The notes under the pieces are model-generated. The model was not told where the DNA came from. It searched no databases and was given only the letters and a program-made list of their open reading frames with translations. Below are positions 7,081 through 13,447 of a stretch of DNA of 16,557 bases, in pieces (the first letter of the stretch is position 1; each line of letters opens with the position of its first letter). Origin of the DNA: Polyangiaceae bacterium (lineage in GTDB: Bacteria; Myxococcota_A; Polyangia; Polyangiales; Polyangiaceae); NCBI GenBank assembly GCA_050287085.1, contig JBNKBE010000044.1:1-16557 (forward strand). The letters are read 5' to 3'. Made by a program: the position numbers and the translations under genes.

Positions 7081-7426
7081 GCGGGTACCCGTGCCCCAAT
7101 GCGTTCCGCCCGCGAGTGGAGCGCGGGTACCCGCTGCCGAGCGAGTCCGCGCTCTGCGCCAGAGCGGGTACCCGCTGCCGAGCGAGTCCGCGCTCTGCGC
7201 CAGAGCGGGTACCCGCTGCCCTGGGAGGCGGCTGGGGCATCGCGGCAGCGGGTATCCGCGCCGGCCTTGGCCCGGCGCACGCAAGCGAGCGGGTAACCCG
7301 CTTGCCCCACCCCGCGCCGGCTGAATTGCGACTCGGGTACCCGCGAACGGACCAGGCCGGGGGCGGCGGGCGGGCGGATACCCGCTCGTCGCTTTGAGCG
7401 GAGGGCAGTGCAGGGCGGATACCCGC
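7081..7426. repeat. Array of nine 12-bp palindromes GCGGGTACCCGC with about 29-31 bp spacers (period 41-44 bp)
   Basis: Copies start at 7081, 7123, 7164, 7205, 7248, 7289, 7333, 7374 and 7415; units 7123-7163 and 7164-7204 are identical; variants GCGGGTATCCGC, GCGGATACCCGC and GCGGGTAACCCGC. Confidence 0.92.
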
Positions 7427-7481
7427 TCGTCGGTTTGGGCGGAGGTTGTTGCCGAACCGGCACCGTGGCGGTGTCGGGCTC

Positions 7482-7509
7482 ATGCGCAATACGGGGCGTT
7501 CTGTGAGCT
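7482..7509 (+). other. Degenerate dif-like (XerC/XerD) site
   Basis: ATGCGCAATAC-GGGGCG-TTCTGTGAGCT in an 11-6-11 layout; right arm matches TTATGTCAACT at 8/11; intergenic. Confidence 0.3.
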
Positions 7510-7555
7510 GGGTGAGGTGGGGGCTTTGGGGCGCGCTCTTGGGGCTAACCTGGGC

Positions 7556-8824
7556 CTACGAGCCACCGTCAGCCCACGCCTCGATTTCGGGGCTGCTCGG
7601 TAAGCCACGAACGGTCACCGGCACGTCGCTTTCGAGTCGAGCGCCATGCCCGAGCTGTCCATCCCCATTCTGACCCCAGCAGACCACCGCACCTTGGCGG
7701 GTCAATGCACAACTGTGGGCATAACCCGCACTGATAGCCTTAGCTTCGATTTGCCCAACACGGACAGGAAGTGCGCTCGTGTTGAGTACTCCGGGCCGGA
7801 GCACACCCGTCGCGCCCCAAACCCACACCTCTCCGGTGCTCTGGAGGGCCAAGCTGTTGATGTAGCCAGTGCTCAGGGCCACTGCATCGTCGAGTCCGGG
7901 CACCAGGGCCGGGCTCGTGTCGATCTCCATCGCTCCCGCGCGCTCACCCCAGCACACTACGGAGCCGCCCTCGAGACGGGCGCAGGTGTGATTGCCGCCG
8001 GCGCTGATCTCAACCGCCGCTTCGGACAACGGAACCACGACGGGCTTGGCGGATGAGCGACGGGTCCCGTTCCCCAATTGACCCATCGTGTTGGCTCCCC
8101 AACAGCTGACGCTTCCGCTGCGACTCAGAGCGCACGTGTGACCGTGCCCGGCATCCACCGCCGCCTGCTCTGCGGCCACGAGGCTTTTCACGGGTGATGA
8201 ACGAGAGACTATGCTGCCATCGCCAAGTTCGCCGACCCCATTTTCGCCCCAGCAAAAGACGGCTCCTGAACTCTGCAACGCACAGGTATGCGCCATTCCG
8301 GCGGTCAGCGCCACGACGTCGCTCAGCCCGACGACTTCCACTGGTGATAATCCGGACTGCTGAGTGCCCTCACCGAGCTGACCCGAAGCGTTGTCACCCC
8401 AACAAGAGACTGCGCCGGACTTGGACAAGGCGCAGGTGTGCTCGTTGCCAGTCGCCAACGCTTTGGCGTCGCGAAGGCCCAGAACCGCGGCGGTGTCGCC
8501 GGAGCCACCAGGCTCCCCTCGACCCAGCTGCCCCGCAGCGTTGTCACCCCAACATCGCGCGGTGCCATCCGAAAGTAGGGCACAGCTGTGGGTATAGCCG
8601 ACAGAGAGACCGACCACCGTCGGTGATACCGGGAGTGGTTGCTGCTTGAATGGCTTGACGTGGGCGTGCCGGGGCACAGGGTTCGCCTCTGGAGGATGAG
8701 ATGCTGAGGGACGCGCAGGTCGCGTCCTTGAGCCCCAGCACCCAGACAGGGCCAAGACGGCCAGACCAATCACCGCAACCGTCGCCGTGTAACGTCTCGA
8801 CGAGCCGACACGAAAACGTTTCAT
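7556..8824 (-). CDS. RCC1/BLIP-II repeat lipoprotein
   Basis: ATG 8824 MKRFR...VIGLAVLALSGC lipobox, Pro-rich linker, about 7 repeats of (S/A)G..HTCAL..G.V.CWG.N..GQLG.G; the 129 upstream codons of the 551-aa ORF look spurious. Confidence 0.92.
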   Translation of the reverse strand: MKRFRVGSSRRYTATVAVIGLAVLALSGCWGSRTRPARPSASHPPEANPVPRHAHVKPFKQQPLPVSPTVVGLSVGYTHSCALLSDGTARCWGDNAAGQLGRGEPGGSGDTAAVLGLRDAKALATGNEHTCALSKSGAVSCWGDNASGQLGEGTQQSGLSPVEVVGLSDVVALTAGMAHTCALQSSGAVFCWGENGVGELGDGSIVSRSSPVKSLVAAEQAAVDAGHGHTCALSRSGSVSCWGANTMGQLGNGTRRSSAKPVVVPLSEAAVEISAGGNHTCARLEGGSVVCWGERAGAMEIDTSPALVPGLDDAVALSTGYINSLALQSTGEVWVWGATGVLRPGVLNTSALPVRVGQIEAKAISAGYAHSCALTRQGAVVCWGQNGDGQLGHGARLESDVPVTVRGLPSSPEIEAWADGGS

Positions 8825-9099
8825 TCCTTGAAGCGAAGACGCCAGAGCGAGGAACCCCGAGCAACCGAAGATGGGACTCAATACTTTCAAAGCGCGGCAC
8901 CCTATCTCAATCCCCACTCGGATGTCTTTGGCCAAGAAGCGGCCCTTTGTGCAGCGCTCGGGCGTGGGCCGTCGACTGGGGGTAGAGCGGACACTTTGCT
9001 GGTCGCAGTGGATGAACTGGCGCAGCTCGGCCCTGCCCGGAGCCACTTTGTGCAGCGGAGCTTTGGGGCGAAGCGCCTCAGGCGGGCTCGTCGAGGGTG

Positions 9100-9600
9100 C
9101 GCTCTTTGTGGGGCCGTGGTGGGCTCGTCGAGGGTGCGCAGTAGTCGGCGGAGGCTTTGCGGACTGACGAGGAAGGCTTTGAGCTGCATCGGTCCGCCGC
9201 ATTGGGCGCACTTGACGTCAATGTCGAAGCTGCGTTTCAGAAGCTCAGTCCAGGGTCTCCAGGCCGAGCAGGGCTTGTCTGGTGCTTGGCCATCGGCGAA
9301 CGGTATGAAACCCGGGTCCCGGCACAGCAGTGGCCAGTCGGCACAAGAAGGATCACGGCTCGAGCTCCACCGCGACGGTGCCGTCAGAGAAAGCTCGTTT
9401 GAGTCCAAGTCGCACCGCACCGTCCGCAGCGAGGCTGACGCGCTCCTGGGCGAGGGGCGGGCGCAGTACGTAGCGCAGCAGCGCTTCCTTTGCGCGTAAC
9501 GATAGCCTCGCGTTTCGACCAGCTGCGGGCCCTGTGCTCCCGCGCTGGAGTCTCGAGCCTGCGTCTGCGTATGCGATGGCTCGGCCATTCGTGCGCTCGT
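9100..9600 (-). mobile_element. IS91-family (Y2 HUH) transposase remnant
   Basis: EALLRYVLRPPLAQERV..DGAVRLGLKRAFSDGTVAVELEP*SFLCRLATAVP, PGFHTVR, then after an internal deletion PWTELLKRSFDIDVKCAQCGGPMQL...LRRLLRTLDEP; in-frame TGA at 9355-9353, frameshifts, 5' end missing. Confidence 0.85.
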
Positions 9601-12157: not shown

Positions 12158-12643
12158 GCTGAGCGGCTATCGTGAAACCAGCTATGGCGCAAGGCATTCC
12201 GCAGAGGGAGCGGTGGGACATTCATCCGTTGAGTGGATGCCGACCGAGCTCTCCGGTTCGCCCCCGCCGGGGAGGACGCCTCCGTGCAGCTCTCAGCGGA
12301 TCTCCATTGCTCTGGCTTCTCGGTGATTGCCGTAGCTTCAAAAGGAGCACAACCAGGCCGCCTTCATCGAGTCCCTTTTCAGGCACTTGAAGTACACGCC
12401 CAGCGACCCAGGTGAAGTCTACAATTCCGCCCGAACCGTTAACCCAAGGCTCTGGACAGGCGGCATCCGAAAGTGGAGCCGTCCAAGCATCGTGACCCCA
12501 GCCGCTCCACTACCGGCGTCGCGCTCTCTGACGGGTCTGTAGGAAGTTGTAGTGGTAGCGTTGGCAAGACAGCCCCATACCAAACCTGTACCAGTTGGGT
12601 TTCCGGAGAAACCTACACAAACAGGAAAGCAGGTAACAGCATC

Positions 12644-13276
12644 ATGTCTATTATCAACGAGCGAACGATCAATATCCGAAGCACCGAGACCGTCGACGAC
12701 GAGCTAGGCGGGGTGAACCCAGCCTGGATCGTGAAGTTGGCGCAAGTGTTGACGTACATTGTGAGGGCCGCAAAACAACTCCACGACGCCGACAAGGCTC
12801 GGGGTATGGTATGTGCATTGAAGAACGAGCTTGAGGACGTACAGCTTAACCCCAAGTGGGCGACCACCGACCACGGTGGTCATGGACGATTTGCCCTGGC
12901 TCCCGACGATCTGACGATTCCCCCTGCAATGGGCGAAATCATGTCGGGTTGTGAGCGAGACGGATCGCTTCTCACCGGCGTGGAGGCCTACGTAGCTTAC
13001 GAGGCCTACTCGATAACGACCAACAAACAGCTATTCGAGATCGCCCTCTGTTTCGACAATCCTCGCGTTGGAGCGGCGAAGTCTGCGATTGTCATCGGCA
13101 GTCCTGGCAGCTGCAACAACGTGAAAAATACCTGCGAGAAGCTTTCAGAGAGTCTCTCCGAGGAAGGCAAATACATCGAACACAACATCTGGCGGTTCAC
13201 CACGACTGCTACGGGCAAGACAGAAGATGGTCCTTTCCAAGTGACCATGGCGGTCGCTCGCAAGCCAGGAAGCTGA
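12644..13276 (+). CDS. Actinoporin/aegerolysin-like putative pore-forming protein (210 aa, no signal peptide)
   Basis: ATG 12644; amphipathic helix WIVKLAQVLTYIVRAAKQL, then RGMVCALKNE...IPP...GSLLTGVEAYVAY...IALCFDNP, collinear with actinoporin RKIAVGVDNE...VPH...GPVATGAVGVLAY...LAVLFSVP. Confidence 0.62.
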   Translation: MSIINERTINIRSTETVDDELGGVNPAWIVKLAQVLTYIVRAAKQLHDADKARGMVCALKNELEDVQLNPKWATTDHGGHGRFALAPDDLTIPPAMGEIMSGCERDGSLLTGVEAYVAYEAYSITTNKQLFEIALCFDNPRVGAAKSAIVIGSPGSCNNVKNTCEKLSESLSEEGKYIEHNIWRFTTTATGKTEDGPFQVTMAVARKPGS

Positions 13277-13293
13277 TCACGTGTGGCGGCTCG

Positions 13294-13330
13294 AGTGCCC
13301 TCGCGTCGCTCTCGCGGGAGCGGGGGCACT
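13294..13330 (+). terminator. GC-rich hairpin after the toxin-like gene
   Basis: AGTGCCCTCGC / GCGGGGGCACT 11-bp stem (one G-U pair) 17 bp after the stop; no strong U tract. Confidence 0.5.
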
Positions 13331-13419
13331 TCGTCCGGCGCCACCTACTCGGGTACCGGAGAAAAGGCCGCGCCGGTTGCGCCACGCCAGCTCCGACCCC
13401 GCTCCGGCCCCGGCGAAGC

Positions 13420-13447
13420 ACCGCGCATAACGAGTGATACGTCAACT
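13420..13447 (+). other. dif-like XerC/XerD recombination site
   Basis: ACCGCGCATAA-CGAGTG-ATACGTCAACT; 8/11 and 7/11 identity to the E. coli dif arms GGTGCGCATAA and TTATGTTAAAT, with an exact 6-bp spacer; intergenic. Confidence 0.6.

Follow-up and report, generated by a model that had tools for sequence, protein, structure and literature searches.

The 16,557-nucleotide stretch analysed here (the window) is the entire contig C44 of a Polyangiaceae bacterium genome (6.2 Mb, 62.8% GC, 160 contigs), and at positions 13420-13447 it holds a genuine look-alike of the chromosomal dif site within mobile DNA. We conclude that this string (site 2) probably belongs to an orphaned oriIS end, left by an ISCR/IS91-like rolling-circle transposon of a dif-mimicking lineage, and that it has no working partner in the window. 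A sequence-only reading had proposed that site 2 and a degenerate dif-like site at 7482-7509 (site 1) bound a cassette moved by host XerC and XerD, with GGGTACC palindromes as accessory-factor sites and with RCC1, Imm51 and toxin-like genes as cargo. Such a two-site cassette is already largely refuted, and what tells us what site 2 belongs to is an oriIS motif at 13475 that the reading had missed. Throughout, C labels are contigs of this genome, L labels collected loci, G labels other genomes and X labels soil metagenome runs.

The dif look-alike and its surroundings

The features that bear on site 2 are listed here by window position and strand.

13420..13447, +: dif mimic (XerC-type arm, 6-bp spacer, XerD-type arm) in a probable solo ISCR/IS91-like end
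13471..13490, +: oriIS-like motif, core TTTGAAGTTCCT at 13475-13486, 27 bp past the XerD-type arm
13381..13490, +: probable solo transposon end, to the extent common to independent contigs (profile match 13412-13492; X5 contig)
6397..6673, +: remnant of an IS91/ISCR-like transposase, C-terminal tip with 3' flank (blastn to C53, C35, C15, C41 and C11)
9225..9493, -: broken IS91/ISCR-like (Y2) transposase fragment between the sites (PF04986 at 9293-9487, E=4.5e-8, one internal stop)
13817..13911, +: short internal IS91/ISCR-like transposase fragment downstream of the solo end (81-92% identity to C53, C26 and C11)

The call of a strong dif-like site at 13420-13447 is confirmed, and its letters read ACCGCGCATAA CGAGTG ATACGTCAACT. 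Site 2 shares 17 of 22 arm letters with the genome's own dif, the top other match among 12.4 million genome positions, and on a matrix built from 29 dif sites of the family (L048 held out) it reaches 23.2 bits, second genome-wide only to the true dif. Its arm score was equalled once across 10 block-shuffled genomes, and with the spacer scored too, 13 hits in the 10 shuffles equalled it; taken alone, the dif score of site 2 is only moderately significant. Position 171772 of contig C4 marks the true dif, which is intact and has no second site next to it, and the dif pattern is present in 175 of 201 family genomes, with more than one match in 9 and a reversed control of 0. Host XerC and XerD were also said to be in place, and XerC- and XerD-like genes were indeed found on C8 and C4 (best matches TIGR02224, E=4.5e-86, and TIGR02225, E=5.5e-90, with both proteins below the equivalog cut-offs of these models), but their use on a two-site cassette is unsupported. 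As the sequence-only reading had noted, the spacers of sites 1 and 2 are alike at only 3 of 6 positions; that of site 2 has none of its 6 positions in common with the host dif spacer, and a spacer that fits neither suggests that this copy of the mimic is likely inert.

The oriIS core downstream of site 2 is identical to that of annotated IS91-family plasmid ends (L418 and L420), and its final letters equal the form seen in L315 and L371, not the plasmid form. A transposon-end profile built from 30 IS91/ISCR-like ends, with the window sequence excluded, gave 13412-13492 its highest score genome-wide (23.4 bits, E=1.6e-4, against 17.1 bits for the true dif), and an alignment of site 2 plus flank with the L315 end reached z=7.1. 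From the matrices of such ends L317, L336 and L338 were omitted as doubtful or of other spacer length, as was L258 for oriIS and 7-bp-spacer scoring. The window thus holds a dif-like string followed by oriIS, and the same arrangement stands past the transposase stop codon in many relatives; at L214, an IS91-like transposase locus in the genus, the dif-like string lies 26 bp ahead of an oriIS-like motif, a layout like that of the window. Site 2 combines a 3' oriIS motif with homology to ends that are attached to Y2/HUH transposase genes. The three transposase remnants in the window count for the transposon-end reading as well: the 9225..9493 fragment matches the NCBIfam ISCR clade Ia model (E=8.1e-5), and the C11 counterpart of 13817..13911 lies in a Y2 transposase frame.

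To place site 2 among its relatives, 181 loci were surveyed from family genomes and metagenomes; 134 had a transposase C-terminus, and 101 of these had at least 300 nt downstream once duplicates were removed. A dif-like site of at least 10 bits with its XerC arm facing the gene was present in 21 of the 101 ends, compared with 0 of 99 upstream controls and 2 of 2,020 shuffles. About one fifth of the sampled ISCR-like ends therefore hold a near copy of the host dif at a fixed place. An oriIS motif of the window type stands behind 8 of 26 mimic-bearing transposon ends and behind site 2, not behind site 1, against a background of 1.2% per 60 nt. Four clinical-plasmid ends (ISCR1, ISVsa3 and two more IS91-family copies) held no dif mimic, the best score being 1.2 bits, and an IS91-family copy on a Bdellovibrio plasmid had a single 13.1-bit match with a 7-bp spacer, distant from oriIS.

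Several observations weigh against assigning site 2 in this way. No transposase match was found upstream of site 2 or of 13381, which is why we describe a solo end, and the assignment has to rest on motifs and homologous ends; a complete ISCR/IS91-like element, with a Y2 transposase before oriIS, is not what the window holds. An upstream motif conserved in many ends is not evident at site 2, the oriIS motif ends differently from that of plasmid ISCR copies (TTCCTGCCC in the window versus TTCCTATACCC), and the mimic-bearing ends with a window-type oriIS are just the 8 of 26 given above. Moreover, 80 of the 101 surveyed ends lack a forward mimic that reaches 10 bits, and 7 of the 101 score as high on the reverse strand, so that the orientation of the mimic is not universal. 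The right half of site 1 also matches, by eye, 13 of 17 letters of a variant site in soil run X4. A blast search of 13335-13520 against 250 family genomes returned nothing beyond short GC-rich matches.

Other ends collected on the way differ in their own manner. At six metagenomic IS91-like ends (L336, L338, L341, L351, L354 and L363) the dif-like score is higher on the opposite strand, at 11.5-27 bits, and their arms differ, perhaps reflecting other host groups. Between L233 and L262 (G380) the end flanks are 95-100% alike, several positions within the spacer and the inner XerC arm differing, as though the site might be where change is concentrated. A separate group of IS91-like transposases (L204-L211, L218-L220 and L227) has a conserved structured 3' motif without a dif mimic, and the sequence that ends this motif is one we take to be attC-like.

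Site 1, the palindromes and the DNA between

The following features belong to the left-hand string and the palindromes; a point in place of the strand means that none applies.

7481..7509, +: weak dif-like string that scores at background, a badly decayed transposon end at best
7082..7426,.: array in an intergenic gap, nine GC-rich palindromes spaced 41-44 bp apart with the core CGGGTACCCG or a variant of it
13347..13360,.: lone palindrome, partial, not within the conserved element end, perfect arm 3 bp

The letters of site 1 are as the sequence-only reading gave them (ATGCGCAATAC GGGGCG TTCTGTGAGCT); its standing as a site is another matter. Only 12 of 22 arm positions agree with the genome's own dif, and at -6.0 bits 1,904 of the 12.4 million positions are as good. 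When read with a 7-bp spacer from 7481, site 1 rises to 4.2 bits on the dif matrix (71 positions as good) and to 13.7 bits on the transposon-end matrix, spacer included, where 43 positions do as well. Per contig, about 0.1-0.2 equally good 7-bp-spacer matches are expected, 0.11 with the transposon-end matrix, and this form is suggestive, not significant, falling within chance after counting the readings tried. Site 1 has no match to the transposon-end profile and no oriIS motif, and the sequences flanking sites 1 and 2 bear no relation to each other (z=1.1-1.3). Site 1 is probably a chance string; that it is a decayed end is possible, if doubtful. A second palindrome array, at a contig end (C11:201828-202160, L413; 42-bp period), has a 12-mer in common with site 1, which may be chance.

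The nine cores of the window array start at 7082, 7124, 7165, 7206, 7249, 7290, 7334, 7375 and 7416, giving spacings of 42, 41, 41, 43, 41, 44, 41 and 41 bp with a best lag of 41. Copies 2-4 and 8-9 are tandem duplications, the folding of the array beats that of 100 out of 100 shuffles, and the array is the sole cluster of its motif in the genome. Palindromes do lie 66-70 bp on the XerC side of each dif-like string, and the sequence-only reading took them for accessory-factor sites like those of cer and psi, expecting enrichment 60-80 bp from XerC arms. We compared 180 other dif-like sites, comprising true difs, transposon ends and the G185 repeats described below, some of them reverse readings of the same sites. 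GGGTACC occurred within 120 bp upstream at 1 of the 180 (background 0.9%), and a relaxed palindrome match 60-80 bp upstream at 3 of the 180 (background 1.2%). Of 80 two-palindrome loci listed by a scan that took a single genome for each species, many being coding repeats or short hairpins, 0 had a dif-like match. With no enrichment, and with nothing of the kind kept in the homologous X4 and X5 contigs, the accessory role is not supported, and no conserved cer/psi-type accessory sequence was found on the XerC side.

The lone palindrome was also said to be related to array copy 7, and it does have an identical 11-mer in common with that copy, an 11-mer that occurs 5 times in the genome. The surrounding region is no closer to the array than GC-matched DNA is (score 37, null mean 36.6, 45% as good), although a fixed 70-nt comparison seeded on the common 11-mer gave z=4.45. 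The lone palindrome is missing from the X4 and X5 contigs and is probably there by chance. Homology of the array to the DNA upstream of site 2 was rejected at null level in an unbiased test.

The array itself likely belongs, by its intergenic position and 41-44-bp spacing, to a class of 41-43-bp arrays found beside a gene for a helical protein. In G068, a 43-bp array with the same core lies upstream of a 273-residue helical protein without a Pfam family. Among homologues of this protein, 13 of 28 have a 41-43-bp repeat on one side, and where enough sequence was available it was upstream in 10 of 26 and downstream in 3 of 27. The genome's own single helical-protein gene (C38:2710-4262, L412) is preceded, at a distance of about 380 bp, by a tandem array of 42-bp period. 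Neither Pfam nor Atlas gave the protein a family, the nearest being DUF6261 at 0.81, a lead only. Against this class assignment, the cores vary within the class, the link to G068 is in part circular, since this very pattern had served to find G068, and no profile match to a helical-protein gene or remnant was found in the window, which makes the window array an orphan. Because its period equals four helical turns, a protein-docking role is predicted and is likely. The array looks unrelated to the dif-like sites.

Other accounts of the array were set aside. The suggestion, from one Minicystis locus, that it is an IS91 end was dropped, there being no such array in the inspected IS91 loci; none of 84 array loci matched the transposon-end profile. 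A reading as repetitive extragenic palindromes (REP) was rejected because the cluster is single. The two-copy palindrome pattern occurs in 5 of 301 genomes of the order, and a blast search of the array region in 40 relatives gave short GC-rich matches only. Dispersed, REP-like intergenic hairpins with the same GGGTACCC core were seen in Deltaproteobacteria and Tectomicrobia (L059, L068, L074, L104, L111, L124, L128 and L131).

Between and around the two sites, the contig carries the genes and blocks listed next.

7556..9211, -: RCC1-repeat protein gene (Pfam WD40_RLD, E=5.8e-79, and RCC1_2)
9709..10957, +: block common to other soil metagenomes under other flanks (runs X2, X3 and X5, one study)
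11822..12157, -: Imm51 immunity-domain gene (PF15595, E=5.8e-13)
12644..13276, +: open reading frame, actinoporin/aegerolysin-like as a lead only (Atlas feature score 0.94, recognition below the threshold)
2486-3472, 3762-4691 and 14013-15236: three paralogous lipoprotein-like genes (28-31% identity), no Pfam or NCBIfam family
right end of C44: start of an IS630-like transposase

The RCC1 and Imm51 domains named as cargo are thus present by Pfam, the true start of the RCC1 gene probably lying inside the 7556..9211 frame. The toxin-like frame has no Pfam or NCBIfam match and remains a lead, through an Atlas cluster in which 43% of members carry PF06369. The window copy of the 9709-10957 block lacks 963 and 132 bases that the soil-run copies hold, and its breakpoints lie far from both sites. 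A short non-coding stretch at 11095-11220 is repeated on C23 (83%) and in three soil runs under other flanks. What lies between the sites is a patchwork and does not form one module, and C44 as a whole is accessory DNA, a patch of mobile debris. Pfam and NCBIfam scans found no replication, phage or integrase genes on C44, an Rfam scan of the window gave no match, further copies of the lipoprotein-like paralogues were not found in the genome, and no RNA data were listed as holding the window sequence.

Independent copies and competing explanations

Independent copies of the element end come from soil metagenomes. On a contig from run X5, 67 of 74 letters agree over 13381-13454 and the contig's loose end runs on through the oriIS motif, and upstream of 13381 the contig diverges, with no GGGTACC there. 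A contig from run X4 agrees with that of X5 in its upstream letters and matches 13381-13428 with 2 differences; past 13428 it has a different spacer, XerD-type arm and flank (a single contig at depth 2.4). Such a switch is the pattern that an exchange at the site would leave, as read from this one depth-2.4 contig. Run X1, a possible source of this DNA, was not counted as support, and the whole interval from site 1 to site 2 was in no run besides X1.

Ends of this kind can also occur in rows. G185 has 72 near-perfect dif-like sites within 80-90-bp repeats, 1-3 kb apart and in both orientations (contigs C49, C51, C141, C149 and C158; loci L050-L055). Among the 38 sites read in six stretches, 36 have one common spacer and 33 end in a motif that also stands behind five IS91-like transposases. 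By their letters these repeats look like rows of solo ends. They make the best case for Xer activity and, of the candidates for a genuinely Xer-shuffled array, are the strongest.

The explanations on offer differ in what they make of site 2 and of site 1. A chance match at site 2 is suggested by the shuffles, where the arm score was reached in 1 of 10 genomes and 13 hits came from 10 shuffles with the spacer scored. It leaves unexplained the oriIS motif at the expected distance, with its background of 1.2% per 60 nt, the profile match at E=1.6e-4 and the independent homologous contig, and by this combined evidence it is refuted, keeping hardly any of our credence. Just as little room is left for site 2 as the attL or attR scar of a dif-integrating mobile element exploiting Xer (IMEX), or as a plasmid resolution site, with a coincidental likeness to oriIS. 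C44 is accessory DNA, and IMEX and plasmid sites typically have strong arms with an altered spacer, both of which suit this idea; yet the true dif is intact inside C4 with no neighbouring second site, C44 has no replication, phage or integrase gene among those scanned for, and the oriIS motif and the homology to X5 and L315 reach well beyond 28 bp.

Other explanations give site 1 a part. That the two sites bound a 5.9-kb Xer cassette, with the palindromes as cer/psi-like accessory sites, would account for two strings in the same orientation with a palindrome 66-70 bp on each XerC side, in a host with XerC- and XerD-like genes, and site 1 is the top 7-bp-spacer match in the window. We nevertheless consider it very improbable, with site 1 at background, spacers alike at 3 of 6 positions, palindromes that are not enriched (3 of 180 relaxed at 60-80 bp versus 1.2%; 0 of 80 two-palindrome loci with a dif-like match), homologous ends that lack the palindrome and an inner block that moves with other breakpoints. 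Alternatively, one kind of ISCR-like element may have supplied both sites as its ends, site 1 being an old, decayed copy and the DNA between having been captured by one-ended transposition or Xer exchange. The 13.7 bits of the 7-bp-spacer form, a spacer type also present in the L243 and L316 ends, the 13 of 17 letters that the right half has in common with the X4 variant and the evidence from G185 that rows of such ends exist all favour it; against it stand the 0.11 such matches expected per contig before counting the choices tried, the absence of an oriIS motif or profile match at site 1, the unrelated flanks (z=1.1-1.3) and the patchwork interval, and we judge it improbable. A bolder proposal is that a myxobacterial ISCR/IS91-like lineage made the dif mimic a part of its oriIS end, letting solo ends serve as XerCD sites, which gives a combined HUH/Xer gene-shuffling system in which site 2 would be one such site, exchanging flanks in X4, and site 1 a worn-out former partner. 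Transposition would then capture genes, and Xer exchange between spacer-matched ends would excise and reorder them; we regard this as doubtful for now.

Under the orphaned-end reading that we prefer, the element would have arrived by transposition from oriIS and lost its transposase afterwards. Its mimic is predicted to be bound by host XerC and XerD. Where elements are intact or in multiple copies, XerCD would recombine sibling ends with matching spacers, and such recombination would resolve tandem rolling-circle products and excise or reshuffle captured DNA. That sibling-end recombination is what the mimic is for seems to us plausible without being probable; a role in XerCD binding without recombination we hold only as a tentative possibility, and a decaying captured site appears unlikely.

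Known systems and the meaning of the mimic

The closest relatives are the HUH/Y2 elements of the ISCR/IS91 family (ISCR1, ISVsa3 = ISCR2, IS91 and IS1294). Passages of PMC13181058 and PMC6218425 describe IS91-family transposition from oriIS that often passes terIS and takes adjacent DNA along; one-ended transposition and circular intermediates of IS91 are treated in parts of PMC13181058, and a sandwich by two oriIS of ISCR28 in part of PMC12772301. As in this family, oriIS lies downstream of the Y2 transposase gene in the relatives of site 2, and solo or remnant ends stand next to unrelated genes. Unlike the four copies from clinical plasmids, the window copy holds a dif mimic, and it has neither transposase nor terIS.

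Site 2 also resembles the pdif sites of Acinetobacter as a 28-bp 11-6-11 XerC/XerD-type site outside the chromosomal dif and near accessory genes. Sections of PMC13141974 describe these as numerous and alternating in orientation, with excision seen between direct sites that have identical or one-mismatch spacers. The window differs in having a single credible site, inside a transposon end and without a matching partner: two credible 11-6-11 sites were not found, nor were identical or one-mismatch spacers (3 of 6 and 0 of 6). In TLC, an HUH rolling-circle protein is paired with a dif-like site on which host XerCD acts (PMC9226527), and an HUH protein combined with a dif-like site is common to IMEX (the TLC, CTX and VGJ phages) and the ends studied here. 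IMEX integrate at dif, whereas site 2 lies away from an intact dif, inside an insertion-sequence end and with no phage or replication genes; no att sites flanking a replicon were found at the chromosomal dif in C4. Like cer and psi, site 2 is a variant Xer core whose XerC-side DNA had been proposed as accessory, but no conserved accessory element lies near it. Insertion sequences of the IS1202 family are associated with dif/pdif Xer sites according to portions of PMC10132070; these elements carry terminal inverted repeats and enter 5 bp away from a site already present, unlike site 2, which falls within the element end between stop codon and oriIS. The array, for its part, recalls REP, bacterial interspersed mosaic elements (BIME) and centromere-like arrays in its repeated GC-rich intergenic palindromes, some inverted relative to others, and differs from REP/BIME in forming one cluster per genome at a four-turn period with no cognate protein gene alongside; many dispersed copies per genome were not seen.

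In the literature that could be searched, which left most subscription papers out of reach, we found no description of a dif mimic in ISCR/IS91 ends, nor of the 41-43-bp array class, and site 2 is apparently an orphan example of an unpublished ISCR-end variant. The yield for the window itself is modest: a transposon end and a repeat array, each an orphan. The weightier point is the family feature, a dif mimic in ISCR-like ends, and it brings the caution that additional dif-like matches in these genomes are often transposon ends. If XerCD acts on the mimics, rolling-circle transposons and the chromosome-segregation recombinase would together form one route for collecting and reshuffling genes, and such a route, if true, would resemble the dif modules of Acinetobacter, seeded by an insertion sequence.

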